DNA of 64,000 bases from Calditrichia bacterium (GCA_050633245.1 JBOEGD010000007.1:114196-178195), one strand, 5' to 3'; numbered from the stretch's first letter, positions 33,092 through 54,324 are shown. Translations and numbers: made by a program. Notes: generated from the sequence alone by a model not told the origin.

Positions 33092-34207
33092 TCAGGGATT
33101 TTTCAGCGTTTTGATAAATTCGGTCGGTGTTATTCCAGTTTGTTTCTTAAAAGCACGATTAAATGCTGCCTTGGAATTAAATCCGGCTTCAAGTGCGAGG
33201 CTGAGGAGCACCTTCGAGTGATGCTCTCCGTTCATTAATCTGCGTTTCACCTCGTCGACTCGATAGGAATTGATGAAATGAAAGAAATTCATTCCGTATT
33301 CTTCGTTCAAAATCTGCGAAAGATATTTTGGAGGGATTGCAGACAATTCCGAGAGCTGGCTTATATTCAGCTCCGGATTAAGATAAGGTTGGTTCTCGTG
33401 AATAAACGTCAGCAATTTTTTCTGATATGTTGCCTTGTCGGCTTCCTTGAGTATGGAGCTCTGGTATTTTACGGCAGGTTCTTTTTGTAGAAGATACACC
33501 TCGGGCACATCGAGTCCATGATAGATAAGGGCAATTGAAAGCATAAACCATGAAAGCACTTCGAGCATGACTATAAAGCGAAATGTATTTTCGTCATTCA
33601 GGAGATCATCAAACAGAAAATTCAATAATCCTGTGCAGCTGAACAAAATGAAACTTAGAAGCAAAAACCACAACAGTTTTCGATGATTTGCCTTAACCTT
33701 TCTATTTAGCCCATCCTCATGCTTCAACGTACGATATAATACTCGCGATGTGATTAGGAGAAACAGGAGGCAAAGAAGGTTTCCAGCTAAGGGGATAACA
33801 TATCCGATAAGCGGATTATTGGGAATTTCCCTGATGTATTGCACCTTTGCATCGAAAGACAGGATATGATAATCGAAGAAGAAAAATACGGTCAGTAAAA
33901 TCGCCGGCAAAAAATATAGTGATTCTCCCCAACTGATGTGGAAGTCTTTTTGCGTAGACATCTTCACATATATGACAAGCAGAGGAATAGCGATTAGAAA
34001 TGTATAATTGAAAATAAACAAAAACTCTGGATATTCAAGGACATTGAAGTTTGCCTGATAATAGTGGTCGACAAATCCCAGGCTCATAAAAAAAAGGAGC
34101 AAAGAGAGGTATCTGTTAGACCGGTTCTTAAGTCGATCCTTGCTAATAAGGAAAGCCGCAAAGAGCAGACAATTAAATGTGGCAATAGCCAGTAATAGAT
34201 TCAACAT
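33092..34207 (-). CDS. Membrane-bound AraC-family transcriptional regulator
   Basis: About 7 TM segments, then PYLNPEL..LSQILNE...NF..FINSYRV...EAGFNSKAAFNRAFKK.TG.TP. Confidence 0.9.
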   Translation of the reverse strand: MLNLLLAIATFNCLLFAAFLISKDRLKNRSNRYLSLLLFFMSLGFVDHYYQANFNVLEYPEFLFIFNYTFLIAIPLLVIYVKMSTQKDFHISWGESLYFLPAILLTVFFFFDYHILSFDAKVQYIREIPNNPLIGYVIPLAGNLLCLLFLLITSRVLYRTLKHEDGLNRKVKANHRKLLWFLLLSFILFSCTGLLNFLFDDLLNDENTFRFIVMLEVLSWFMLSIALIYHGLDVPEVYLLQKEPAVKYQSSILKEADKATYQKKLLTFIHENQPYLNPELNISQLSELSAIPPKYLSQILNEEYGMNFFHFINSYRVDEVKRRLMNGEHHSKVLLSLALEAGFNSKAAFNRAFKKQTGITPTEFIKTLKNP

Positions 34208-34276: not shown

Positions 34277-35794
34277 TTACTTGGTGCGAACGAACTCGAT
34301 ACGACGGTTCTGAGCACGGCCTTCAGCAGTCTTGTTGTCTGCAATCGGACTGTCTTCACCAAAACCCACAGCCTTCACGCGATTACCAACGACGCCTTTA
34401 CGTAACAACCATGCACGAACAGAATCAGCACGACGCTGCGAGAGACGCTGGTTGCTTCTTGCGCCACCCTGGCTATCGGTAAAGCCATGAATTTCAACTT
34501 CCATGTCCGGATAAGCTACCAACGTTTGGTACGCTTGCTCAAGAATAGCTTCGGATGTAGAGGTAATCGCAGATTTACCTGATGCGAAGACAATACCATC
34601 AAGCACAATTCTGGCTCCGACATTTGTTACTTCAAGAACCACATCGTCATCAGCGTTGAGTGGGTTCGTACCACGAGCAACTTCTGCACCGTCGTTTACG
34701 GAACCGGCATCGGTATCAGCGACAAGAGGATTCGTCTTATTAACTTTCACCTCTTTGCCGTCATTTAAACCATCATCATCGGTATCAGCTTTTAAAGCAT
34801 CCGTTTTATATTCACTCAGCTCAGAACCATCATCCAGGCCATCGCTGTCTGTATCATTTTTGTTCGGATCCGTTTTGGAAACTTCAATCTCATCCTTATC
34901 ACTGAGACGATCACCATCGCTGTCTTTTTTCAGCGGATTGGTATTATGCTTCAGTGCTTCACTCATATCATCCAGACCGTCACCATCGCTATCCGCGTTG
35001 TTGGGGTCGGTGTTATAGGTGCCAACTTCTTCACCATCAGCAAGACCGTCGTCATCGGTATCAGCCTTCAAAGGATCGGAATTGTGCTGGGTAACTTCTT
35101 CACCATCACTGAGACCATCACCATCGGTATCGTAATTTTCCCTATCGGTACCCAGCTTCTTTTCTTCTTTATTTAATAGGCCATCAGCATCAGGATCTTG
35201 ATTAGAGCTCAGCGTAAACGTAAGCCCGCCCATTCCACTAAACCATCCATCATTTCCATCTGAAGAGGCGTTCTGATTCAACGCATCTGAATTGGTAAGA
35301 TGATAGCCACCACTTAGATCAAGCGAGACAATATCTGTAATTTTCAGCTGAAAACCACCACCACCAGTGCCATAGGGAACCCAACCACTCGATTCGAGAG
35401 TTGCATCAATTACGGCAGGTGCTTCGCTAACCTCATAGTAAACACCACCAGCTCCACCATAAATGTAGGGGCTAAAATACTCGGTCCAGAACAATCGAAC
35501 CAGCAGGCGATAGTCGCCAGAGTTGATATCTGTGGTATATGGGTTGGTATCTTCACTTGTTAATTTTCCAAGAAAATTACCGGTAATCTGTCCTTCCACC
35601 GGGCCCAAAATACTATGGCGGATAAAAGCACTGGCCTGAATGCCAAACTTTTCATCGCGGCCAAAGTCGAGATCGCCAATTGTTGGTCCACCTGCCAAGC
35701 CAAGTGCCACTCCGCGAGTACGCAGTTGTGCCATCATTGAGGTGGTCAATAAAACCACAAGAGCAATCGTTAAGTATGTACGAATTCCAGACAT
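34277..35794 (-). CDS. OmpA-family outer-membrane protein with Ca-binding (TSP3-like) DxDxDGLxDxxE repeats
   Basis: N-terminal barrel, about 8 DTDxDGLxDGxE repeats, GFTDSQG, NQRLSQRRA, GRAQNRRIEF. ATG 35794 after GGAGGA. Confidence 0.92.
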   Translation of the reverse strand: MSGIRTYLTIALVVLLTTSMMAQLRTRGVALGLAGGPTIGDLDFGRDEKFGIQASAFIRHSILGPVEGQITGNFLGKLTSEDTNPYTTDINSGDYRLLVRLFWTEYFSPYIYGGAGGVYYEVSEAPAVIDATLESSGWVPYGTGGGGFQLKITDIVSLDLSGGYHLTNSDALNQNASSDGNDGWFSGMGGLTFTLSSNQDPDADGLLNKEEKKLGTDRENYDTDGDGLSDGEEVTQHNSDPLKADTDDDGLADGEEVGTYNTDPNNADSDGDGLDDMSEALKHNTNPLKKDSDGDRLSDKDEIEVSKTDPNKNDTDSDGLDDGSELSEYKTDALKADTDDDGLNDGKEVKVNKTNPLVADTDAGSVNDGAEVARGTNPLNADDDVVLEVTNVGARIVLDGIVFASGKSAITSTSEAILEQAYQTLVAYPDMEVEIHGFTDSQGGARSNQRLSQRRADSVRAWLLRKGVVGNRVKAVGFGEDSPIADNKTAEGRAQNRRIEFVRTK

Positions 35795-35940
35795 ATTGTC
35801 CTCCATTGTAGAAAAAATCAGTCGTTTTTTCCTTGTTGAATGTAGCTAATTCTAACCCCTAAAAATCTATTTGCAGGCCCCTTTTAGACTTCTGCATTAC
35901 AACTTCTGTCACTTACCCTGAGAAATAGTACTCACTTTTA

Positions 35941-36281: not shown

Positions 36282-37877
36282 TTATTTGAGTTTTACAACG
36301 ATACCGAGACGACGTAATTCGTCAATCTTTCCTTCAGAGTAGCCTAATTCCATTAACACTTCGGCAGTGTGCTCACCCAAGTTCGGGGCAGTATTTGAAA
36401 TTCGCGGGTGCGTGTGTGAGAATTTGAGCGGTATTCCGATAGTCTTCACTTTGCCAAATTGTGGATGCTCACGTACATCGACCATTCCTCTGGACTTAAT
36501 ATGCGGATCATCTTCAATATCTTCCACATCCAAAACAGGTGTTAAACAATAGTCTCCTGCCCCAATTTGATCGAGCCAATAATCTCGCGGCTTTCCTTTA
36601 AACAGAGAAACAATTTCCTTCCGTAATTTTGTCGCTTCCCTGCCAGATGAATTCATTTTATCCAGCCATTTAGGCTTTCCGGCAAGTTCGCAAAAGCGCG
36701 TCCAGAATTTCGGTTCTACTGCGCCAAGCGCGACATACTTTCCGTCTTTACAGCGATAAGTGCCATACGCAGCCATTCCCCGTGTTAGCGGCTGCTGCGA
36801 CGGCGGAAGTTTTTCACCGGTAGACCAGTAATGTGCCAGAGGAAGGCTCATCATGGGTAGAGCTGCATCGAGAAGAGAAACATCGACACGCTGCCCCTGC
36901 CCGGTTCGATCGCGTGCAAGTAAGGCAGCCATACACGCATTCATTGCCATATAGGCTCCGGCAACATCGGTAATCTGAGCACCTGGCACCACAGGTTCTC
37001 CACGATCATTTATCGTATTGGACAATATGCCAGACAAGCCAAGGTAATTCACATCATGACCAGTATTTTGGGCATAGGGGCCGCTCTGACCATATCCGGT
37101 CAGAGATACATAAATGACGCGTGGATTGGTTTTTATTGCCTCAACATAATCCAGACCAATCTTTTGCAATACGCCCGGCTTAAATTGCTCTACTACAATA
37201 TCCGCAGTCTTCACAAGATCAAAAAAGACCTCCTGTCCCCTTTCTTCACTCAGGCGAAGCGCCAAACTACGCTTCGATCGGTTCACGGCCATGTAGCCAG
37301 CTGAAAGATCGTTAACATATGGAGGATAATCCCGCATATAATCCGGGCTGATAATGTCTTCAATCTTTATGACATCGGCGCCCATATCAGCCATCATCAT
37401 CGTTGCCAAGGGTCCGGGATAAAGACGTGTCAGATCCAGAATCCGTATTCCGGAAAGCGGTCCCGTGCCCAACTTAACGGGCTTAGGCCATGGGATATTG
37501 CGCTCTTCATAACCGTCGGAAGTCACCGGATCGGTTCGACGCACAATCTTCTGAGGCAGCTTGATTTCACTGGGATCTTCGATAATCTCTGCGTCTTCAA
37601 TAAACGGCTCTTTAACCGGCGTTTCGACTGGAGCATCTACGACAGTATTCTGCATGCTGGAAAGCTGTCGCTCTTCTGCAGATAGCTTTCGTACCGGCTG
37701 CGGCTGACTTGAATCTTGTCGCTTAATATCCGGTAAAGCGCGGATATCAATATCGACCTTGCTGTCTTCATCACCGTTTAGCGAGGAAACCAGAGGGTGC
37801 GGGTCTGTCTGTAACGGATCTTTGCGACGAACAACGCTTTTTTTCTTGCCACCACTGTTCAACGCCAAAATCGGCAA
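36282..37877 (-). CDS. CaiB/BaiF class III CoA-transferase / alpha-methylacyl-CoA racemase-like, with long N-terminal linker; start uncertain, in frame with the upstream ORF
   Basis: PLSGIRILDL, ADMGADVIKIE, NRSKRS, TGYGQSGPY, GHDVNY, AP.LGEHT. Confidence 0.88.
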   Translation of the reverse strand: MPILALNSGGKKKSVVRRKDPLQTDPHPLVSSLNGDEDSKVDIDIRALPDIKRQDSSQPQPVRKLSAEERQLSSMQNTVVDAPVETPVKEPFIEDAEIIEDPSEIKLPQKIVRRTDPVTSDGYEERNIPWPKPVKLGTGPLSGIRILDLTRLYPGPLATMMMADMGADVIKIEDIISPDYMRDYPPYVNDLSAGYMAVNRSKRSLALRLSEERGQEVFFDLVKTADIVVEQFKPGVLQKIGLDYVEAIKTNPRVIYVSLTGYGQSGPYAQNTGHDVNYLGLSGILSNTINDRGEPVVPGAQITDVAGAYMAMNACMAALLARDRTGQGQRVDVSLLDAALPMMSLPLAHYWSTGEKLPPSQQPLTRGMAAYGTYRCKDGKYVALGAVEPKFWTRFCELAGKPKWLDKMNSSGREATKLRKEIVSLFKGKPRDYWLDQIGAGDYCLTPVLDVEDIEDDPHIKSRGMVDVREHPQFGKVKTIGIPLKFSHTHPRISNTAPNLGEHTAEVLMELGYSEGKIDELRRLGIVVKLK

Positions 37878-37973
37878 CTTTTCTTTTTTTGAAATAGGCC
37901 GCGCTACCGTTAAGAGCTCCCATCCTGAGGGCTCATCGGGTGGAGGACGGTCATCCTCAGCGGCTGCCTGGCT

Positions 37974-40346
37974 TCACGTTCCGTGCAGTTTTCGGAACAC
38001 TTTACCAAAGTGAGTCATTTCGGGAATATTAGACACTTTAACCTTACCCATCATAAATGCAACTTGTGGATTGGTTTTGCCGAGCTCTATATCCATGTAG
38101 GTTTTGTCGGATGTCTCTACCACACAGCGTGGATCTCCACTTAATCCATCTTCTACAGTACACTGCCCGGAGAATATCTTGACGGTATATTCCCCACCCT
38201 GCTCACCAGATAGTCTGAAATGAAAAACGGTTCTATATTCCCCGGCTTTTTCGGGGCGAAAGCGATGCGGCATGCCATCAAAGATATCTTGAACAGAGTG
38301 AATATCGTGTTTAGTTGTTTTCGGCGCATGCTGGCGCTTACCAAGTCTTGGTGGTGGAACGCTGCGACGTGCTTTAGGAGTTGGTGCCGGTGGTGGTGCT
38401 GTACGCGCATCAGCAGGTGAAGAGTGTCCATTTGCTTGTTTGGAAGGAGCCGCAAGTATGGTTTCATCAGCGGACTTGGGATCCTTACCCGAGATTACCG
38501 GTTCAGTCACTTCTTCAGAAGATGTTTTGAGACGCGTCACGTCAATTCGCGGTTCTTTTGAAGATTGTGGCAATGGCTTTTCAGACAAAATGGTTGGATC
38601 AGTATTTTCCTGTATGCTATCTGCTATTTCTTCAGGCGTTTCTTTACCGGCTTTTTCCGCTTGCTGAACCGCTTTCTTTACGTCTTCTTCAGTAGCAATG
38701 TCTGCAGAAGACACTTCCTCGGTCTCAACAAGTTCAATACTCTCAGATATATCTTCTTCAAAAGTGGCAGATTCTTTTACAGGATCTGTAATCGGTTTTG
38801 CGGGTTTCGGAGGATCTGCGGGTACGTCTGCAACTACCTTTTTACCCGTATCTTTTGTTGACTTCTGTTGCGCCTTTGCAACTTCCGGCTCTTCGGCAGG
38901 CGCGCCTTCAACCGGTTTTTTTGCGGTCCCTTTTTTCTTCGATTCCTTTAGGTCTTCGACTGTTTTCTCTTCCTTTTGGGAAGCCGTCTTTTTTGCAGTC
39001 TCTTTTACCTTAGCAGTCTTTTTCTCAGAAGAACCCCCTTCAACTTCTACAGGAGGAACCACTACTTTAGCCTCTTTCTCTACTTCCTCGGGCTCAACAG
39101 CATTCAGCTCCTCAACAGTTTCTTGCACAAGTGGAAGGTCAGGAGAAGATTCATCTGCATCAGGTGCATCCAGAAGTGAGACTGAAGGCGAGCGAAATTC
39201 AAAGTCATCAATAACCAGCTTGGAAACGATTTCGCGCATGATATCTGTGCTTCCGCCGACAAGGGTGGATATTCGCGCATCGCGATAAAGACGCGAGATA
39301 AGATAGTCTGAAGTATATCCAAACTCGCCAAAACACTGCAGACACTCATCCGCGACTTTTTTAGCCAGTTCCGTACTAAAAAGTTTTGCCATAGTGCATT
39401 CTTTAAGCGCCTGCTCGCCTCTGCCATACTGCCAAGCGGCAAAGTAGGTTAATCGACGAGCAGCCTCTATTTCGGTTGCCAAATCGGAAAGTGCATGTCG
39501 TGTAGACTGAAAGTGAGACGACGGATGGTCAAACTTCTTACGCTCGGCAAGATATTCGAGGGTATGCTCCAGACAAAATTCAGCGGAAGCAACGGAGGTT
39601 ACCGCTGCAATCAAGCGTTCCAGCTGGTAGCATTCCATGATGTAATAAAACCCCATATTTTCTTCACCGATGAGGTTTGCAGCGGGTACGCGTACGTTTT
39701 TAAACGACAATTCTGCAGTATCGGCAGACTGCCAACCAACTTTTTCTAACTTGCGGCTGCTGAAACCGTCAGTATTACTATCAACAATGAATAGCGAAAT
39801 TCCGCTGGCTCCGGCTTCGGGATCTGTCTTGGCGGCAACAATAACAAAGTCACCGTAAATGCCATTAATGACAAAGCTTTTTGACCCGTTCAATACATAG
39901 TTATTCTTCTCACGCACAGCCCGGGTTTTTATTTCAGAAACATCTGAACTGACATTCGGCTCTGCAAGGGCCAATGCTCCGATACGCTTTCCGGCGATAC
40001 CCGCACTTAGATATTTTTTCTGAAGTGCCTCTGAAGCAAAACGCTCCACATAGGCAAGAGCCATAAACTGGTGCATATTTACGGCAGCTGAAAAACCGCC
40101 CATCGCACTACGCGTAAGTTCTTCCAGAAATACTACGCTCGAGAAGAAATCTGCTTCCAAACCGCCAAATTTCTTGGAGTAGTTTATTCCCAGGAATTTC
40201 TCTTCACCCATTTTTAACCAAGTCTCGCGCGGAATGCGCCCGGACTTTTCCCATTCCTGGGCATTCGGTGAAATTTCCTTTTCGACAAAATTCCGGACAG
40301 ACTTACGGAGAGCTTCGTGTTTTTCATTGAAAAACGGTGACTTCAT
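37974..40346 (-). CDS. Acyl-CoA dehydrogenase fused via ~300-aa low-complexity linker to an SCP2 sterol/acyl-carrier domain
   Basis: ACAD motifs (LNGSK, DTAELSF.NVRVP..NLIGEE..GF, ERL, MAKL, RLYRDAR), E/K/P/A/S-rich linker, C-terminal RFRPEKA...GGEYTV...GKTNPQVAFMMGKVKV. Confidence 0.88.
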   Translation of the reverse strand: MKSPFFNEKHEALRKSVRNFVEKEISPNAQEWEKSGRIPRETWLKMGEEKFLGINYSKKFGGLEADFFSSVVFLEELTRSAMGGFSAAVNMHQFMALAYVERFASEALQKKYLSAGIAGKRIGALALAEPNVSSDVSEIKTRAVREKNNYVLNGSKSFVINGIYGDFVIVAAKTDPEAGASGISLFIVDSNTDGFSSRKLEKVGWQSADTAELSFKNVRVPAANLIGEENMGFYYIMECYQLERLIAAVTSVASAEFCLEHTLEYLAERKKFDHPSSHFQSTRHALSDLATEIEAARRLTYFAAWQYGRGEQALKECTMAKLFSTELAKKVADECLQCFGEFGYTSDYLISRLYRDARISTLVGGSTDIMREIVSKLVIDDFEFRSPSVSLLDAPDADESSPDLPLVQETVEELNAVEPEEVEKEAKVVVPPVEVEGGSSEKKTAKVKETAKKTASQKEEKTVEDLKESKKKGTAKKPVEGAPAEEPEVAKAQQKSTKDTGKKVVADVPADPPKPAKPITDPVKESATFEEDISESIELVETEEVSSADIATEEDVKKAVQQAEKAGKETPEEIADSIQENTDPTILSEKPLPQSSKEPRIDVTRLKTSSEEVTEPVISGKDPKSADETILAAPSKQANGHSSPADARTAPPPAPTPKARRSVPPPRLGKRQHAPKTTKHDIHSVQDIFDGMPHRFRPEKAGEYRTVFHFRLSGEQGGEYTVKIFSGQCTVEDGLSGDPRCVVETSDKTYMDIELGKTNPQVAFMMGKVKVSNIPEMTHFGKVFRKLHGT

Positions 40347-40482: not shown

Positions 40483-42606
40483 TTAATAGAACTTTTTGGC
40501 AGTGTTTACCATCTCGGAAAGGATTGGAGCAGGAGTAAAGCGCGGGCCACATTGCTTTTGATATTCCTGAAGCATCTTTAGCAGAACTTCGGCGCCGGTC
40601 GAATCTGCATAGCGGAATGGACCACCGAGAAATGGCGGAAATCCCAGCCCCAGAATGGCCCCAAGGTCGCCATCTTGAGGAGAAGTAATGATTCCTTCAC
40701 CCAGACAATACATGGCCTCGTTCACCATCATTAGAAGGAGGCGATCCTGAACTTCAAATGGCGGGTGTTCTCTTCGGCTCATTCCGCCAAAATATTTATA
40801 GACACTCTGATTCACTTCTTTATTCTTGCCAGGTCGACCATCTTTATCCAGTTCATAATGGTAGAAGCCTTTTTGATTTTTTCTGCCCAATAGCCCGTCA
40901 TCAACAAGTTTAGCCATTACATCAGACGTTTTGGCACCGCGCCCGGCAAATAAGCCAGAGAGCACATCTGATACATGTGCTCCGACATCAATGCCAACCT
41001 CATCAATAAGCGTAAGCGGGCCAACAGGAAAGCCAAAACGCTTCATCGTGCGATCGATGTAGGCAATATCTCCGCCTTCCGCAAGAAGTAGTAATGCCTC
41101 ATTCAGCATAGGAGCAAGGATGCGAGTGGTATAAAAGCCAGGGCCATCTTTGACAACGATTACTGTTTTACCCTGTTTTATCCCCACATCTACAGCCGTT
41201 GCAGTCACCCAATCGCTTGTTTGTGGAGTTATAATAATTTCCAGTAGTGGCATTTTCGGAACCGGCGAAAAATAGTGCATGCCTATCACGTTCTGCGGTC
41301 TTTGTGCCTTTGCGGCAATGTCACCAATCGGCAATGACGACGTGTTGCTTGCAAAAATACAGTTTGCATCCGTTGCGGCCTCAACTTCCGATAAGATGCG
41401 ATGCTTCAGGCTCAGATCTTCGAAAACGGCCTCAACAACGACTTCAGCAGACTTAAATCCGCGATAATCGGTTTGGCCGCTAAGCCGGTTGAAGGTGACG
41501 TCTCGCTGAAACGAAGAGATCACCTTCTTACGGACCTTACGATCCAAATCGTAATAAATCATTTTCTGGCCGCGCGCGACATTTTCAATGCTTATATCTT
41601 TTAATACTGCCCTAAACGAGCTATTTATGCTAACATTCGCAATTCCGGAGCCCATTAAACCGGCACCAACAATGCCAATCGTTTTTACGTTCTTCACTTG
41701 ATCTGTAAGCGGGTTTTTCTTTTTGTCAGTAATACTAAAAAAGAGCTGCCGTAATTCGACTGACTGCGGACTACGCGTTAGCTTTTCAAACGAATTTGCT
41801 TCCTCTAAAAGCCCTGCTGCCATTCCACTACTTATCCCCTTCTGAACACAGGAAATAATTTTTGCAGGAGCAGGATAGTGCCCACCCGTTTGCTTAGCAG
41901 CTATTTTACGAGCTTGATTAAAAATAATTTTGCGCAGTGGTGTTTTCTCCAACGCTTTGCCGAAGAGAGAAAGACGCGGCTTGCGCTTCGGCATATTATC
42001 GACCAGGTTTAGCGCAGCCTTTCTGGCGCTGTCTAGCAAGGCGTGTTCACTCACAATCAAATCGACAAGCCCCATTTTCTTTGCAGGTACCGGATAAACG
42101 TTCTTCCCCGTTAAAAGAATATCGAGTGCACGCTGAATTCCAATAAGTCTTGGCAAGCGCTGTGTACCACCCGCGCCGGGAAGTAAGCCCAGTTTTACTT
42201 CAGGCAACCCAAAAATTGTTTTGGGAGAATCGCTGCATATCCGGTAATCACAAGCGAGCGCGACTTCTAAGCCCCCGCCCAGAGCAGCGCCATGAACTGC
42301 TGCAACTACGGGCTTTGGGAAGTCGTCCAGACGCTGTAGCAGTTCTTGCCCCGCCCGCACCAGCTTTTCAACCTCGCCGGGTAATTTTAACTCAGCGAGT
42401 TCATCCAGATCAGCTCCGACAATAAAGCTGTCTACTTTCCTGCTAATCAAGACTACAGCGATAATCCTATTATCCTGTCCAAGTGTTGACAGCATCGTTG
42501 CAAACTCATCGAGAAGATAGGCACCGAGTTTATTTACTTTCTCGCCTTCCTGATCTAGCCAGACGACTGCTACCGAGTTATGCATTTCGAGGTGTAAATA
42601 AGGCAT
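40483..42606 (-). CDS. fadJ: Fatty-acid oxidation complex alpha subunit (enoyl-CoA hydratase/3-hydroxyacyl-CoA dehydrogenase)
   Basis: ALGGGLEVALAC, PEVKLGLLPGAGGTQRLPRLIG, GAGLMGSGIA, ASNTSSLPI, GMHYFSPV.KMPLLEI. Confidence 0.92.
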   Translation of the reverse strand: MPYLHLEMHNSVAVVWLDQEGEKVNKLGAYLLDEFATMLSTLGQDNRIIAVVLISRKVDSFIVGADLDELAELKLPGEVEKLVRAGQELLQRLDDFPKPVVAAVHGAALGGGLEVALACDYRICSDSPKTIFGLPEVKLGLLPGAGGTQRLPRLIGIQRALDILLTGKNVYPVPAKKMGLVDLIVSEHALLDSARKAALNLVDNMPKRKPRLSLFGKALEKTPLRKIIFNQARKIAAKQTGGHYPAPAKIISCVQKGISSGMAAGLLEEANSFEKLTRSPQSVELRQLFFSITDKKKNPLTDQVKNVKTIGIVGAGLMGSGIANVSINSSFRAVLKDISIENVARGQKMIYYDLDRKVRKKVISSFQRDVTFNRLSGQTDYRGFKSAEVVVEAVFEDLSLKHRILSEVEAATDANCIFASNTSSLPIGDIAAKAQRPQNVIGMHYFSPVPKMPLLEIIITPQTSDWVTATAVDVGIKQGKTVIVVKDGPGFYTTRILAPMLNEALLLLAEGGDIAYIDRTMKRFGFPVGPLTLIDEVGIDVGAHVSDVLSGLFAGRGAKTSDVMAKLVDDGLLGRKNQKGFYHYELDKDGRPGKNKEVNQSVYKYFGGMSRREHPPFEVQDRLLLMMVNEAMYCLGEGIITSPQDGDLGAILGLGFPPFLGGPFRYADSTGAEVLLKMLQEYQKQCGPRFTPAPILSEMVNTAKKFY

Positions 42607-42651: not shown

Positions 42652-43947
42652 TTACGCGTCATAGCGTTCTAAAATCATGGCATTTCCAATAGCTCCGGCG
42701 GCGCAGGACGCAATGAGTGCGAAGCGCGCATTTTCATGATGAAGACGATTTACCGCGGTAGTTACAAGCCGACCACCGGTAGCACCAAACGGATGTCCGA
42801 TAGACAATGAGCCGCCCCAGGTATTCAATTTATCCAATGGCACTTCTCCAACCCGCGAACTCCGCCCCAATTTTTCCTTCGCAAAGCTATCGCTATTTAA
42901 GCAATTCAGATTGGCGACTACCTGCGCCGCAAACGCTTCGTGGAATTCAAATACCCCAATGTCCTGCAATCTTAGTCCGCTCTTATCGAGTACTTTCGGC
43001 GTGCTATATGCAGGCCCAAGCAAGAGCTCATCTTCCGGGTTCTGAGCACTGTAAGCATAGCTGTTAAATGTCGCTTTGGGTGTGTAGCCTAAAGATCGGG
43101 CAACATCTTCTGCCATAAGCAGTACCGCGGATGCACCATCAGTCAGATAGGAAGAATTTGCTGCGGTAAGCGTGCCATATGGTTTAATAAAAGCCGGTTT
43201 AAGACTTTTCAACTTTTCCATCTTGCTGTCACCGCGTATGCCATTGTCTGCCGACAGCACATTAAATTTAGGTGGAAGCGGCACAGGTGCAATTTCTTTG
43301 CCCAGCAGTCCGGCCTCCGTCGCCTTGGCAGCGAGGTGATGAGAGCGCAACGCAAATTCATCCTGTTCTTCACGTGTTACACCAAGTCTTGCAGCCATAC
43401 GATCACAATCTTGCCCCATTGTGCGTCCGGTTGAATATTCGCTAATTGATGGTATTTCCGGTAAGACGTCGCTGAATTTAAGACCTCGGAAAAACTTCAG
43501 CCAATCGGTTGGCTTTCGGTAGCGCTGTGACTCAATGAGTTTTTGGCGGAATCGGCGGCGAAACTTTATTGGTACATCAGACATTAGCTCAGTGCCTCCT
43601 GCAATGACGATATCAGCCTGTCCGGTCCGAATCAAGTCCACGGCATTCGTTACCGCTTTGTTACTGGAGATGCATGCTTGAGTAATCGTCGCTGCGGGAA
43701 CATGGTTCGGCACGCCAGCGGCCAACGCCGCCTCACGTGCAACATTGCTGGTAGACATGTTAGAGATAACACTGCCCATCAGCACCCAGTCTATTTTTTC
43801 CGGATCGACCTGACTGCGATCGAGCAGTGCTTTAATAGCCATGCGACCAAGATCGTAGGAAGTAAAGCGTTTATAATCTGTTCCGGCTCTCAAAAATGGA
43901 ATTCTGCAGCCATCGACATATACGGCCTTGCGCAATAGACCAGACAT
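42652..43947 (-). CDS. fadI: 3-ketoacyl-CoA thiolase (FadI/HADHB type)
   Basis: TQACISS, EFHEAFA, GGSLSIGHPFGATG, SCAAGAIG. Confidence 0.92.
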   Translation of the reverse strand: MSGLLRKAVYVDGCRIPFLRAGTDYKRFTSYDLGRMAIKALLDRSQVDPEKIDWVLMGSVISNMSTSNVAREAALAAGVPNHVPAATITQACISSNKAVTNAVDLIRTGQADIVIAGGTELMSDVPIKFRRRFRQKLIESQRYRKPTDWLKFFRGLKFSDVLPEIPSISEYSTGRTMGQDCDRMAARLGVTREEQDEFALRSHHLAAKATEAGLLGKEIAPVPLPPKFNVLSADNGIRGDSKMEKLKSLKPAFIKPYGTLTAANSSYLTDGASAVLLMAEDVARSLGYTPKATFNSYAYSAQNPEDELLLGPAYSTPKVLDKSGLRLQDIGVFEFHEAFAAQVVANLNCLNSDSFAKEKLGRSSRVGEVPLDKLNTWGGSLSIGHPFGATGGRLVTTAVNRLHHENARFALIASCAAGAIGNAMILERYDA

Positions 43948-51486: not shown

Positions 51487-54324
51487 CTATTTATCCAAAT
51501 AAAACAGACTCTCCTCCGGACGTAGCGGACGGTTCAGCCAGAGTGGTCGACGTAATCCATTTGGACCAGGTGCCGGGCGGGTCTTAGCCAGCCAGTTTTT
51601 ATAGACTTCAAAGGATTTTTGAGTATCGACGGCAATATCCCCATATTTATCGTCTGGCTCTGCCTTCGTGATACGCACCTTTTGATGCCAGCAGTGCATA
51701 CCGCTAATCGGGTCGGGATGAACCGGAAAGGTTATGTTCTGGTGAACACCACCATCACTCCAAAAAACGCGGGCAGAATCAGCATCATTGCTATCGAATG
51801 GCCCAATTCCCTTCATCGTACTCATCTTCCAAAGGCTGCCCTCTTTTTCGAGAGCAACGGTATTTGTTGCCCAACGATTACCGGTTTTATCCTGCGGGCG
51901 ACGCCAGCGACCAATGTGATGCGAACAGGCAACGATTCCCGGCTTCATACCTTCCGTTACCCATACCTTGTCGACAAAATAACCGATTTCAGTCGTAATA
52001 CGCAGCAGATCGTTTGTTTTAATACCAAGTCGCTCCGCATCGGAGACGTGCATCCAAATTGGATTGCGATTGGAAATTTCGGTTAACCATTTTGCGTTAC
52101 CGGAGCGCGAGTGGATAAGTGTCGGCAAACGGAATGTCGGCACCAGTGGAAAGTCGCCCTTTTCGCGCTCCAGATTTTCTTCATGCACATGACTTTTGAT
52201 GTAGGTAGGAATTGCATATTCCGGCCAACCCCAGTCGACTAACGTTTGCGAGAAAAATTCCTGTTTACGCGATGGCGTGGGAAATCCTGCATAAGCTTTG
52301 CCTTCAACCATTACGCCCGCAACATTGCCATCCTTTGCAATTAGTCCACTTTTCTCTTCAACTTTGGCATCTTTCAAATCGCTTTCCGGAATGCTTTTGA
52401 GATACTTTGCATACGATGAGGATTCTACTTCAAATGCGCCATATTTACGCATATAGGCCAGTGAATCAAGTCCTTCAGCCGCAGCCTTCTCAGATAGCCC
52501 CGGGGTATTGTCAAAGATAAAGCGATAGTATTCATCAATTGTTATTTTTTCGTTTTCACGATAGGGAGACAGGAAATGCTTGCGAATGCCCAGACTTCCA
52601 TCGGGGTCCATTCGCCAGGATAGTTCAATCCAAAACTCATCTTCTTCCCAAACTTCGCCCGGGTTTGCCTGCCAGGTAAACTCGACATTTTCTCCCAGCC
52701 TGCGGCGTGCTTCGCGTAACACCGGCTGGCGAAAAGCCATCCACATACCGGAGTGTGTCTCGTAACTTAATAGATCGTGGCGTTCACCGGCGTGCCCCAT
52801 GGGCAGAACATAATCGGCATAATAGGCCGTTTCATTCCAGGTCGGCGTCAGAGCGATATGCATGCCGAACATGTTTTCATCACTCAATGCCTCAATCCAA
52901 GAGAACCCATCCGGGTATGTCCAGACCGGATTAAAAACGCGACTAAAATAGACATCCATTTTGCCACGGTTTTCCTTCAAAAAATGCGGTAATAAGAAGC
53001 TAAGCTCATAGTGCGCAAGCGGATATTCGTTGGGAAAGTGAAGTTCATTCCAAAATTTCTGTGCCGGTGGTTTGTTGAACATCGTCGGCTTGAACTTATT
53101 CCATGCGCTGGGTGAGGTTCCACCAACGGTTCCAACGCTGCCGGTAAGCACATTTAGAAAATGCAGGCAACGAGACACTGCCCACCCTCCCAGGTTACCG
53201 CTGGAGGCGCTGCGCCAGTTGTGCGTGGCAAAGCGTTCACCCGCTTCACCAATTTGGCGAGCGACGTCGACTATCATCTCTGCAGAAATTCCTGCCTCTG
53301 CTGCTGCAAATTCCGGCGTGTATTCAGCATATTCCTCGCGCATCGCCTTTATGAAGTTCTCAAACGTTGCAGGCTTATCAGATTGACGTTGCTCCATATA
53401 CGTTTCCCAATTCACCCAATTTCGCAAAAAGGCTTCGTTATAAAGACCTTCATCCAGTATAATTTTTGCCATGGCCAGCAGCACCGCGGCCTCACTACCG
53501 GGATTAGTCGGCATCCAGTGCGTAGCCATCGATGCCGTATTGGAAAGGCGTGGATCCATTACCGCCAGCTTCGCCCCCTTCATCATGCCCTCAATAATGC
53601 GCTGTGCATGTGGGTTGAAGTAATGTCCCGATTCGAGGTGTGCACTAATCAACAAAATAAACCGGGCGTTCGCATGGTCCGGCGACGGTCTGTCGTAGCC
53701 ATGCCAAATGGCATAGCCAAAACGCGCACCGGCAGAACAAATATTGGTATGACTATTGTGTCCGTCTACACCCCACGCCTGAAGCACGCGATTGGCATAG
53801 CCTTCATGTCCGGGACGACCAACGTGATAAGCAATTTCATTGTGACGCTCTTCCTTAATCGCCCTGCTTAAACGATCGGCAATATCATCAAGAACTTCAT
53901 CCCAACTCACGCGTTCCCACTTCCCTTCCCCGCGTTTTCCCACGCGCTTCAGCGGATAGAGAATACGATCGGGATCGGTGATCTGGTTTATAGTTGCTGG
54001 TCCCTTGGCACAGTTGCGACCACGGCTACCGGGATGGTAAGGGTTTCCTTCAAACTTTCTAACTTCCATCGTTTCTTTATCTACATAACTCAGAAGACCA
54101 CAACCAGCCTCGCAATTAAAACAGCTGGTAGGAACGATCATGTAGTCTCTTTTTTTACGAGCATCACCACTTTTCGCCTCATATTCCTGCCAGTTATCCC
54201 ACATTTCCGGTGGTGGATATGCCGTTAACTCTCCCGGTTCGTTCAGATGGGGCAGCTTTTCACCATTGGTAAGTTTTGGAATAATTTTAAGAGACTCAGC
54301 GATTTTTTCGATAAAGGAGGCCAT
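51487..54324 (-). CDS. Mo/W-bisPGD oxidoreductase catalytic subunit (DMSO reductase superfamily), no Tat signal
   Basis: SCFNCEAGC...EGNP.HP.SRGRNCAKG (FS0 cluster), RILYPLKR.G.RGEGKWERVSWDE, HTNICS, NETAYYADYVLP, C-terminal dinucleotide-binding domain. Confidence 0.9.
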   Translation of the reverse strand: MASFIEKIAESLKIIPKLTNGEKLPHLNEPGELTAYPPPEMWDNWQEYEAKSGDARKKRDYMIVPTSCFNCEAGCGLLSYVDKETMEVRKFEGNPYHPGSRGRNCAKGPATINQITDPDRILYPLKRVGKRGEGKWERVSWDEVLDDIADRLSRAIKEERHNEIAYHVGRPGHEGYANRVLQAWGVDGHNSHTNICSAGARFGYAIWHGYDRPSPDHANARFILLISAHLESGHYFNPHAQRIIEGMMKGAKLAVMDPRLSNTASMATHWMPTNPGSEAAVLLAMAKIILDEGLYNEAFLRNWVNWETYMEQRQSDKPATFENFIKAMREEYAEYTPEFAAAEAGISAEMIVDVARQIGEAGERFATHNWRSASSGNLGGWAVSRCLHFLNVLTGSVGTVGGTSPSAWNKFKPTMFNKPPAQKFWNELHFPNEYPLAHYELSFLLPHFLKENRGKMDVYFSRVFNPVWTYPDGFSWIEALSDENMFGMHIALTPTWNETAYYADYVLPMGHAGERHDLLSYETHSGMWMAFRQPVLREARRRLGENVEFTWQANPGEVWEEDEFWIELSWRMDPDGSLGIRKHFLSPYRENEKITIDEYYRFIFDNTPGLSEKAAAEGLDSLAYMRKYGAFEVESSSYAKYLKSIPESDLKDAKVEEKSGLIAKDGNVAGVMVEGKAYAGFPTPSRKQEFFSQTLVDWGWPEYAIPTYIKSHVHEENLEREKGDFPLVPTFRLPTLIHSRSGNAKWLTEISNRNPIWMHVSDAERLGIKTNDLLRITTEIGYFVDKVWVTEGMKPGIVACSHHIGRWRRPQDKTGNRWATNTVALEKEGSLWKMSTMKGIGPFDSNDADSARVFWSDGGVHQNITFPVHPDPISGMHCWHQKVRITKAEPDDKYGDIAVDTQKSFEVYKNWLAKTRPAPGPNGLRRPLWLNRPLRPEESLFYLDK

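Follow-up and report, generated by a model that had tools for sequence, protein, structure and literature searches.

The question raised by this locus is whether a single in-frame TGA, lying between an ACAD-SCP2 protein and a CaiB-like domain, simply ends one gene or is sometimes passed by the ribosome to give one long enzyme. In the window (the whole 64,000-nucleotide stretch that was analysed), translation of 40346–36282 on the minus strand gives 1355 positions with two stops, one internal (position 791) and one terminal. This re-derives what the initial annotation had claimed, namely a frame of 1355 codons interrupted once, by a TGA at 37976–37974 that has A as its next base. The internal stop divides an ACAD-linker-SCP2 portion from a linker-CoA-transferase-III portion that carries a GHDVNY motif, and the locus is laid out as follows.

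42652–43947, minus strand: thiolase gene (Pfam Thiolase_N 9.4e-72, Thiolase_C 8e-37), which opens the beta-oxidation cluster
40483–42606, minus strand: FadB-like enoyl-CoA hydratase / 3-hydroxyacyl-CoA dehydrogenase gene (Pfam ECH_1 2.4e-45, 3HCDH_N 4e-52, 3HCDH 1.1e-35)
37977–40346, minus strand: ACAD-linker 1-SCP2 ORF, 790 codons, C-terminal end ...KLHGT
About 40328–39219, minus strand: ACAD domains (Pfam ACAD N, M and C, residues 7–376)
Between ACAD and SCP2, minus strand: linker 1, disordered, roughly 307 residues
About 38237–38031, minus strand: SCP2 domain (Pfam, residues 704–772)
37973–37979, minus strand: recoding-site candidate, comprising the Thr codon ACG (37979–37977), TGA (37976–37974) and the +4 A (37973)
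37458–37973, minus strand: linker 2, 172 low-complexity codons, open throughout and in frame with both flanking domains
36282–37457, minus strand: CoA-transferase family III domain of the alpha-methylacyl-CoA racemase type (Pfam CoA_transf_3 1.6e-110), terminal TAA

AAGGA precedes the ATG of the thiolase gene, GAGG lies 8 nt 5′ of the ACAD-SCP2 ATG at 40346, and the starts of all three upstream operon genes are preceded by AGGA or GAGG. The CoA_transf_3 match occupies residues 173–536 of the 563 residues downstream of the TGA, so that some 172 linker residues lie ahead of the catalytic domain, where about 170 linker-like residues had originally been estimated.

A single in-frame stop between two long ORFs in one genome could be fortuitous, with a 1 in 3 chance for the frame. 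The conservation of the in-frame TGA in relatives, judged on the aligned sequences, cannot be chance. Alignment of orthologous loci, suggested at the outset as a check, finds TGA followed by A, in the same register and frame, in 14/14 of the related Calditrichota loci that carry a stop at the site (8 genus labels of the genome collection plus metagenome contigs), although these counts are not independent events because the loci are related. The stop has drifted neither to another stop nor to a sense codon in any of them, and the hairpin described below is not kept. TGAA is the sole invariant block of the alignment from −45 to +48, and Thr occupies position −1 in 13 of the 14 loci, encoded by ACT, ACC or ACG. 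The terminal stop of CaiB in the same loci, taken as an internal control, is TAA in 4, TAG in 3 and TGA in 4, and not even the window and its nearest kin have the same one. Genome-wide, 506 of 2724 long ORFs end in TGA, with A as the next base in 137 of those 506. Related ACAD-SCP2 genes that have no downstream CaiB (L061, L065) terminate with TAG or TGA-T, and many further stops come after them. On these comparisons, both the identity of the stop and its +4 base appear to be under selection at this site. The Thr may be there for the structure of SCP2 and not as a signal, since several ACAD-SCP2 proteins from other phyla likewise end in Thr.

The same data bear on an alternative raised in the initial annotation, that a single fused gene is broken up by an error of sequencing or assembly, or was inactivated recently by a nonsense mutation. 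The genomes are draft metagenome assemblies, and one low-coverage contig (L041) does have additional in-frame TGAs, but the TGA recurs in every one of the independently assembled loci, positions 37974–37976 are unchanged in contigs of a 93.5%-identical relative from another study (depth 111 and 43), and every locus has an intact CaiB domain (46–62% identity). Error or recent mutation is therefore refuted, and we give it a negligible probability.

From the stop onward, the reading frame is kept and free of stops and the sequence shows protein-coding constraint, with L022 and L023 as exceptions. The linker runs stop-free and in frame into the CaiB domain in 9/14 loci and is open in frame to the contig end in two more; in L022 and L023, which belong to one genus, the frame shifts within the linker, a change that we tentatively attribute to an N-run and tandem-repeat collapse. 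Linker 2 varies from 22 to 193 codons across loci, and many indels must therefore have occurred; stops in frames 0, +1 and +2 nevertheless number 0, 41 and 83 (1306 codons, 10 loci). Compared with the 93.5% relative, the 40 substitutions in linker 2 fall 10, 4 and 26 at codon positions 1, 2 and 3, with 0 gaps. In the window, the 32 codons after the TGA (SQAAAEDDRPPPDEPSGWELLTVARPISKKEK) are open as far as the TTG at 37877, and two features lie in this part of the linker.

37911–37946, minus strand: peptide motif PPPDEPSGWELL, whose codons lie after the TGA and ahead of any possible start codon
37875–37877, minus strand: TTG, first canonical in-frame start after the TGA (+33), a candidate internal start

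The counterpart of this motif in L040 (PPPDDEPSGWELL) differs from it by 6 synonymous codon changes, against 0 non-synonymous ones, and by one 3-nt indel. Over the 278 codons that separate the TGA from the first ATG, GTG or TTG in the loci, stops by frame number 0, 9 and 14. TGA-A, the frame and an open, codon-like linker are thus conserved, and a conserved start is absent.

These observations can be set against a simpler arrangement of two ordinary genes, in which ACAD-SCP2 would stop at the TGA and CaiB/racemase would start inside the linker (in the window, at TTG 37877 or at 37655, the first ATG after the TGA). In that case the CaiB protein would have a long, disordered N-terminal extension, and the two genes would share a frame either as a remnant of an ancestral fusion or for reasons other than read-through. 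The TTG at +33 is indeed ATG in the 93.5%-identical relative, as a start codon should be, and 4/12 loci combine a Shine–Dalgarno (SD)-like core with an in-frame linker start (L029, GTG at +8 with AAGGAG; L010, ATG at +41; L021, GTG at +112; L027, GTG at +42). At least in some lineages, internal initiation could therefore be the source of CaiB. Of two loci from outside the phylum, L045 has TGA-C and then an SD and ATG 11 codons on, and L047 has its CaiB gene in another frame. No SD-like core was found upstream of TTG 37877, where the sequence is A-rich, or of ATG 37655, but this is not decisive because such a core precedes just 42% of the crude gene starts in this genome. The earlier statement that CaiB lacks a convincing start is borne out in the window and in most relatives; it is qualified by the four loci with an SD-like motif and start and by the relative with ATG in place of the TTG. 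The candidate starts, however, lie at different positions and are not homologous, so that no start codon or SD site for CaiB is conserved among the 12 loci. L040 has CCA aligned to TTG 37877 and its first TTG three codons later, at +38, while L025 and L042 are essentially without any start, the former having a sole TTG two codons ahead of the domain motif and the latter none in the first 71 codons after the TGA. Nor would two genes account for a stop-free frame ahead of the first possible starts, for its maintenance across linkers of such different length, for the synonymous evolution of the peptide right after the TGA, or for the invariance of TGA-A while the terminal stop of CaiB drifts. We consider this arrangement unlikely, while granting it an appreciable chance. 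Any mechanism that translates from just after the UGA would explain the conserved frame and openness there, including re-initiation close to the stop on a non-canonical codon or hopping of the ribosome over the UGA, and L010 (ACT TGA ACT) even has matching take-off and landing codons. That match occurs in only 1/14 loci, however; the loci examined have no ATG, GTG or TTG for 7 to 71 codons after the stop, conserved structure is absent, and we hold either route to be very improbable.

A different route through the UGA would be its reading as selenocysteine by way of SelB and a downstream SECIS hairpin, which would make the full-length product a selenoprotein. The candidate hairpin is as follows.

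37943–37958, minus strand: hairpin GAGGAT-GACC-GTCCTC, 15 nt after the TGA, −6.3 kcal/mol; real, not a conserved element

The organism has selenocysteine machinery: SelA and tRNA-Sec, both named initially as worth looking for, are present in the genome together with an FdhA that has a genuine Sec-UGA and a GGUC-loop hairpin, and SelA occurs in 35 of 37 genomes from the order, with no carrier of the site lacking it. The stop is also invariably TGA. The hairpin is present at 37958–37943, as first noted, and fits the loose bSECIS geometry, for which the criteria given in PMC13188914 are a G in the first two loop positions at 16–37 nt from the UGA. A SECIS-like hairpin passes at 4/12 sites against a background of 49/504 and 323/3000 (about 10%), with the FdhA control passing. 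It is as a signal that the hairpin fails: 8/12 orthologous sites are without one, among them the nearest kin L040, which keeps a 5-bp stem under a UCA loop with no G; RNAalifold gives 0 consensus pairs across 12 orthologues; stability downstream of the TGA is ordinary (Fisher P 0.33); and 17% of 45-nt windows in the locus match the stability of the hairpin. Cys homologues are described for nearly all selenoproteins (PMC13188914), whereas Cys stands in register with the TGA in 0/11 stop-free SCP2-CaiB fusions, where the residues are Q, R, K, T, T, T, L, L, T, Q and K. The site opens a variable low-complexity linker with Cys absent nearby, an Rfam search gave 0 matches, and the main text of selenoproteome reviews does not mention acyl-CoA, sterol carrier, CoA-transferase, CaiB or racemase. 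The locus resembles bacterial selenoprotein genes in its conserved in-frame UGA and Sec-using host, but differs from them in having neither a conserved SECIS nor a Cys homologue and in placing the site in a disordered linker. Since the hairpin is sporadic, the consensus structure absent and Cys never in register, selenocysteine is unlikely, as the initial annotation had judged, and we rate it as improbable.

The domain that lies beyond the stop appears complete, its CoA_transf_3 match spanning profile positions 1–366 of 366. GHDVNY aligns to GHDINY of M. tuberculosis MCR (1x74), where the true transferase SUGCT has GYD, which bears out the initial description of the motif as AMACR-like. The Asp in 'itDvaG' aligns with that of MCR 'vgDfgG', and we take the MCR residues aligned with this Asp and with the GHDVNY His to be the catalytic pair. 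The domain is thus like alpha-methylacyl-CoA racemase in sharing the GHDxNY motif and the aligned Asp, but unlike it in that SUGCT, a CoA-transferase, is its top-scoring PDB match (4.1e-61, vs 2.5e-52 for MCR). Because of that score, and because the alignment to MCR covers residues 1–324 only, 2-methylacyl-CoA racemase activity is a prediction from one motif.

A sister genus and several lineages of other phyla have true SCP2-CaiB fusions that contain no stop. The natural SCP2-CoA-transferase-III and ACAD-SCP2 fusions that were compared (P0130, P0131, P0134, P0135, P0136; L028, L030, L044, L046, L073; P0124, P0125 and others) have the same domain order, the same SCP2 end register and a racemase-type domain after a linker, but each has only two domains and no stop inside it. 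The best 120 of 211 matches from a search of 5.8 billion proteins with limited word-index sensitivity included no three-domain ACAD-SCP2-CaiB protein free of a stop. Attachment of SCP2 to beta-oxidation enzymes also occurs in the eukaryotic peroxisomal fusions SCPx and MFE-2.

An in-frame stop kept across the whole family suggests that ribosomes sometimes pass it to make one long three-part enzyme. We therefore lean towards programmed read-through of UGA-A, which would probably give a major ACAD-SCP2 and a minor ACAD-SCP2-racemase isoform. The two-isoform idea of the initial annotation is thus favoured by the invariant TGA-A, the open linker and the sister fusions, while we infer the occurrence of read-through itself, the inserted residue, the isoform ratio and the physiological role. 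The UGA at 37976–37974 would act as a conserved, deliberately weak terminator, at which most ribosomes would terminate to release ACAD-SCP2 (790 aa, roughly 87 kDa). In E. coli, RF2 binds UGAA weakly and extended products arise from the pheL UGAA (PMC5373646). Thr directly before the stop is underrepresented 2.25-fold among bacterial C-termini, and one termination-stalling motif cannot do without it (PMC7246954); both the leakiness of UGA-A and the effect of the −1 Thr are known from E. coli, which belongs to another phylum than the host. In a minority of passages a near-cognate tRNA would decode the UGA, most plausibly the single tRNA-Trp(CCA), and low-frequency reading of TGA as Trp has been described (PMC7918605). 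Such ribosomes would continue through the 172-residue flexible linker into the racemase-type CoA-transferase-III domain, yielding an ACAD-SCP2-racemase isoform of 1354 residues (roughly 149 kDa). The signal would apparently be short and local, comprising the Thr codon, the UGA and the A, with RNA structure seemingly not involved. The gene follows those for thiolase and the FadB-like enzyme, and its likely role would be to tether a sub-stoichiometric 2-methylacyl-CoA racemase to the (2S)-specific dehydrogenase and to the lipid-binding SCP2, where it would serve beta-oxidation of methyl-branched acyl-CoAs. UGA is a normal stop in this genome, because RF2 is present, and no special UGA-reading tRNA was found, tRNA-Trp having an ordinary 5-bp anticodon stem. 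A search for RNA runs that contain the stretch listed none.

Read-through at a UGA gives phage Q-beta a C-terminally extended isoform of its coat protein, the A1 protein. In fungi and animals, UGA read-through appends peroxisomal targeting signals to metabolic enzymes, the class of protein also involved here (PMC4207609). With both systems this locus would share a leaky UGA, a short conserved context, a common N-terminal part, a fixed ratio and an in-frame extension. It differs in lying in a bacterial chromosomal operon and in being known from sequence alone, in extending the protein by a whole second enzyme behind a long linker instead of a short signal, and in its context, which is Thr-UGA-A and not the known UGA-CUA. 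Belinky et al. (2021) inferred that in-frame stops in bacterial genes are read through, with TGA as Trp as one route, and regarded most such stops as short-lived, on the time-scale of polymorphism, and probably deleterious in the long term (PMC7918605). The present stop resembles theirs in interrupting an otherwise intact frame under purifying selection; unlike theirs, it is fixed across a whole family.

More tentatively, at somewhat less than even confidence, we propose a family-wide, structure-independent programmed UGA read-through in a chromosomal operon, with Thr-UGA-A as its sole signal, that would join a whole 2-methylacyl-CoA racemase to some ACAD-SCP2 chains and, in most carriers, be the sole way in which the racemase domain is produced. 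If this is true, the stoichiometry of a tethered machine for branched-chain beta-oxidation would depend on the efficiency of termination, as governed by RF2 activity, growth state and tRNA-Trp supply.

Translation of the minus strand from 40346 to 36282 gave 1355 positions with a single internal stop at position 791 and a terminal stop, so the one interrupted frame described in the initial annotation is real. The internal stop is a TGA at 37976–37974, followed by A. Pfam places the N, M and C domains of acyl-CoA dehydrogenase (ACAD) at residues 7–376 and SCP2 at residues 704–772 of the 790-residue upstream part, and CoA_transf_3, the CaiB domain, at residues 173–536 of the downstream 563 (1.6e-110). 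Other features proposed from the sequence are also present: 32 codons that stay open past the TGA until a canonical start codon first appears (TTG at 37877), an earliest in-frame ATG at 37655, and a hairpin, GAGGAT-GACC-GTCCTC, at 37958–37943, 15 nt past the stop. Upstream on the same strand lie a thiolase gene and then a FadB-like hydratase/dehydrogenase gene, and two genes follow downstream:

34277–35806, minus strand: OmpA/TSP3 gene (509 residues), directly downstream of the beta-oxidation cluster
33092–34207, minus strand: AraC-type regulator gene (371 residues), after the OmpA/TSP3 gene

The 509-residue protein combines bacterial thrombospondin type-3 repeats (1.1e-33) with a C-terminal OmpA domain. 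Among the best 120 of 211 matches, the nearest named public proteins carry the label Calditrichota bacterium. Elsewhere in the window, a molybdopterin-oxidoreductase family match (1.5e-23) at 52756–53967 on the minus strand (C7:166951–168162 of the window's genome, G000) sits in a 957-codon open frame without an internal stop.

Orthologues of the CaiB part, called at E ≤ 1e-111, were found in 12 of the 40 relatives searched and in 12 of 85 other genomes of the phylum, and the 7.5-kb regions around them were compared. SCP2 and CaiB share a frame in 9 of the 11 loci holding both (tblastn). Reading the shared frame showed, in 9 of the 11, a TGA right behind a conserved ...LPDT; the remaining two, from one sister genus, have no stop and are true SCP2–CaiB fusions. 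Scanning metagenome contigs with an SCP2 alignment added the window's close kin L040 and L041, a further lineage (L042), a stop-free SCP2–CaiB fusion (L044) and four loci resembling other phyla: L045, with TGA-C and a Shine–Dalgarno (SD) sequence plus ATG 11 codons on; L046 and L048, both stop-free fusions; and L047, with its CaiB gene in a different frame from SCP2. A scan of species genomes added L062, whose record is titled Deltaproteobacteria bacterium and whose SCP2 end, TGA context and linker repeats nearly match those of the Calditrichaceae-labelled L022 and L023; its taxon label or binning may be wrong. In two ACAD-SCP2 genes of Calditrichota, L061 and L065, no CaiB gene follows; they end in TGA-T and TAG, with many stops after. 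P0121, P0122, P0126 and P0128 are further ACAD-SCP2 proteins with an LPDT or LPDP end.

Alignment of orthologous loci, the comparison proposed at the outset for both the stop and the frame, returned TGA followed by A in all 14 loci having a stop at this register and, in 9 of these 14, a frame open from the TGA into the CaiB domain. A Thr codon (ACT, ACC or ACG) immediately precedes the TGA in 13 of 14. As a control, the stops that end the CaiB gene in these loci comprise 4 TAA, 3 TAG and 4 TGA, with TAA in the window vs TAG even in its close kin L040. In the window's genome TGA is the stop of 506 among 2724 long ORFs, with A as the +4 base at 137 of the 506. Sequencing data matching the window comprised three contig sets from one study, each with a small word share and with no RNA run among those listed; they represent a relative 93.5% identical to it and served here for substitution patterns. 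Its contigs, at depths of 111 and 43, cover 37402–38396 with 65 substitutions and no gap, and none of the 40 listed differences (taken in position order and extending past the site) touches 37974–37976. The conserved TGA-A and these contigs exclude a sequencing error and a recent nonsense mutation, both of which the initial annotation had allowed for. Within L041:540–2158 (contig coverage 2.2), there are two in-frame TGAs besides the conserved one, the first 5 codons after it and the second within the CaiB domain (YRC*DG vs YRCKDG in the window); these extra stops, all TGA, may be low-coverage sequencing errors or tolerated leaky stops.

Linker 2, which separates the TGA from the CaiB domain, ranges from 22 to 193 codons across lineages, so much sequence has been gained and lost. 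Beyond the nine loci with a fully open frame, L042 and L062 stay in frame and open for 183 and 218 codons, where their contigs end, L041 (2.2-fold coverage) is in frame apart from its two extra TGAs, and L022 and L023, from one genus, shift frame within the linker. The linker of that genus is a tandem array of a ~40-residue peptide repeat (...AVGRDGDVPDEKPESGQAAPAAAGVQNFSFAQADEG...). Linkers built of repeat arrays are:

L022:5263–5813
L023:1714–2620
L062:3295–3953
L003:1–470

Assemblies break at the array: there is an N-run, contigs end within the repeats, and one frame change falls where two repeats meet. The frame change in L023 coincides with the run of N; that in L022 falls at the repeat junction, after which the same peptide repeat goes on in the CaiB frame. 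L062 carries four repeats that share the frame of the TGA, and those of L003 share the frame of CaiB. We infer that the frame changes in L022 and L023 are assembly problems.

The linkers of ten loci total 1306 codons, and stops number 0 in frame vs 41 and 83 in the two alternative frames. Restricting the count to the 278 codons that run from the TGA up to an initial in-frame ATG, GTG or TTG gives 0 vs 9 and 14. Between-genus nucleotide alignments of the linker proved unreliable, with uninterpretable gap lengths (L021 vs L024, L026 vs L027), and the nucleotide comparison was restricted to the window vs L040. There, the first nine codons past the TGA have diverged, and the twelve after them (PPPDEPSGWELL) carry six synonymous changes, zero non-synonymous changes and one 3-nt insertion:

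37911–37946, minus strand: peptide PPPDEPSGWELL, conserved with L040 amid a fast-evolving linker

In the window these codons precede every canonical start codon, and the peptide could be a short linear interaction motif. Of the 40 substitutions listed against the 93.5%-identical relative, 10, 4 and 26 are at codon positions 1, 2 and 3, with 23 synonymous and 15 non-synonymous codon changes in frame; shifted frames give 0 and 6 synonymous changes vs the 23 in frame. The six substitutions between the TGA and the TTG at +33 are distributed 2, 0 and 4. Judged by these sequence comparisons, the DNA past the TGA acts as coding from the stop onward. The amino-acid compositions of linker 2 and of linker 1, between ACAD and SCP2, correlate at 0.70 within genomes and 0.62 between genomes, which is not discriminating, and the lengths of the two rise together only weakly and not significantly (Spearman 0.57, P 0.14, n = 8). 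Linker 1 (window 38238–39218) is itself greatly expanded in this family, reaching 307 residues in the window and as many as 386 in L021; it measures ~40–55 residues in L029 and L025 and ~30 in 520-residue ACAD-SCP2 proteins of other phyla.

The main rival to read-through is that the CaiB protein is made by internal initiation, with no recoding. SD sites are in use in this genome: an SD core (GGAG, GAGG or AGGA) at −18 to −4 accompanies 42% of crude first-ATG starts vs 5.6% for a control window, and is present at all three upstream operon genes. The initial annotation held that CaiB lacks a convincing start of its own, the candidates having no ribosome-binding site, which is true of the window, where, as in L024, L025, L026, L040 and L042, the linker has no in-frame start with an SD-like core; in L025 the sole start is a TTG two codons ahead of the domain motif, and L042 runs 71 codons without a start codon. 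It does not extend to L029 (GTG at +8 behind AAGGAG), L010 (ATG at +41), L021 (GTG at +112) and L027 (GTG at +42), whose SD-like cores favour internal initiation. So does the TTG at +33 of the window, which is ATG in the 93.5%-identical relative, a change that fits a start codon and also an ordinary Leu/Met exchange. However, a conserved independent CaiB start, named at the outset as evidence against read-through, is not seen, since in-frame start codons within the linkers occupy non-homologous positions, and internal initiation leaves the coding-like open frame right after the TGA unexplained. We regard it as unlikely overall, though it may operate in some lineages.

Selenocysteine at the UGA is a serious proposal on paper, given that the window's genome is a selenocysteine user, with machinery that the initial annotation had suggested looking for and a genuine Sec-UGA gene:

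C12 ~39630, plus strand: Sec-UGA formate-dehydrogenase-like gene
C31:42609–42705: tRNA-Sec
C20:30568–31653: SelA

Of the 37 genomes of the order, 35 encode SelA, and every carrier of the site is among them. The formate-dehydrogenase-like gene has its in-frame TGA in ...QCAAT-U-HAPTVAGL..., followed by a hairpin UGGCC-GGUCU-GGUCA with a GGUC loop. Under a published loose bSECIS geometry (G in the first two loop positions, 16–37 nt from the UGA; PMC13188914), this control passes, and 4 of 12 orthologous sites, the window included, have a qualifying hairpin of −4 kcal/mol or better; the background is 49 of 504 for ordinary TGA stops and 323 of 3000 for random positions within ORFs, and L040 fails. 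RNAalifold predicted zero pairs over −45 to +48 in 12 loci, where TGAA alone is invariant; folding energy over +4 to +48 was ordinary when ranked among windows of the same locus (median percentile 0.37, Fisher P 0.33); RNAfold z-scores for the 63 nt from the UGA ran from −2.4 to +1.8 in 10 loci without trend; and Rfam at permissive thresholds gave 0 matches in 37780–38080. The hairpin, noted initially as a possible signal, thus drops out as a conserved element. When 11 stop-free SCP2–CaiB fusions were aligned gap-free from a conserved NPQ[IV]AF motif, the residues in register with the TGA were Q, R, K, T, T, T, L, L, T, Q and K, with Cys in 0 of 11. The accessible main texts of two prokaryotic selenoproteome reviews mention no acyl-CoA, sterol carrier, CoA-transferase, CaiB or racemase entry, and we found no literature pairing Calditrichaeota with selenocysteine. 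The early view that selenocysteine was the less likely reading is upheld by the unconserved hairpin, the missing Cys and the empty Rfam search, and we consider it very improbable.

Read-through of the UGA is, on the comparative evidence, probably the best explanation. RF2 is present and 506 long ORFs end in TGA, so UGA is an ordinary stop in this genome. Among the 35 tRNA genes found, which may lack an unassembled second tRNA-Trp copy, there is no UCA-anticodon suppressor other than tRNA-Sec. A tRNA-Trp with a 4-bp anticodon stem (the mechanism of PMC13092985) was rejected, the genome's tRNA-Trp(CCA) having the usual 5 bp. What is conserved is short: Thr-UGA-A. In earlier work, UGAA binds RF2 relatively weakly in E. 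coli and the pheL UGAA stop of K-12 yields extended products (PMC5373646); Thr at the last position of bacterial proteins is specifically depleted 2.25-fold and is essential in one termination-stalling motif (PMC7246954); and low-level decoding of TGA as Trp is reported for E. coli and Salmonella, with a B. subtilis reporter giving ~6% (PMC7918605). Together with the conserved context, these reports lead us to propose context-driven near-cognate read-through, with Trp probably inserted, which would yield a major ACAD-SCP2 product of 790 residues and a minor ACAD-SCP2-racemase product of 1354. The two isoforms envisaged initially are thus favoured, with the hairpin no part of the signal. A second stop-separated long frame was not clearly seen in the genome, in a scan of low power owing to antisense shadow ORFs and same-frame neighbours.

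The GHDVNY motif of the downstream domain aligns with GHDINY of the M. tuberculosis alpha-methylacyl-CoA racemase (MCR), where the transferase SUGCT has GYD, and this bears out its description as AMACR-like; an Asp of the domain also aligns with MCR, although SUGCT scores slightly better overall (4.1e-61 vs 2.5e-52). In MCR the His of GHDxNY and the aligned Asp are the catalytic pair, and acyl-CoA dehydrogenases take only the (2S)-methyl isomer. Read-through would tether small amounts of the predicted racemase to the dehydrogenase and a lipid-binding domain, beside the thiolase and FadB genes, an arrangement that would suit the oxidation of methyl-branched chains.

Programmed read-through of stop codons has been well described in viruses, phages and eukaryotes; to our knowledge, conserved examples from the genes of cellular bacteria are very few. 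Closest in logic is the re-targeting of metabolic enzymes by UGA read-through in fungi and animals (PMC4207609). Unlike known cases, the Calditrichota site has no stimulatory structure that we could find and joins two complete enzymes. Whereas in-frame stops surveyed in bacteria are common and mostly short-lived (PMC7918605), this TGA is fixed over the whole family, and in the loci seen a sense codon never replaces it. A search of 5.8 billion proteins, which needs shared words, showed no three-domain protein free of the stop in its best 120 of 211 matches, and the literature searched, mostly non-subscription, described neither this locus nor a similar bacterial case linking two enzymes. A family-wide site would offer a natural bacterial model of context-driven UGA leakiness. 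It would also caution that gene-calling software splits genes of this type, leaving the downstream half wrongly annotated from an arbitrary start, and it would exemplify translational control of enzyme stoichiometry in lipid catabolism.
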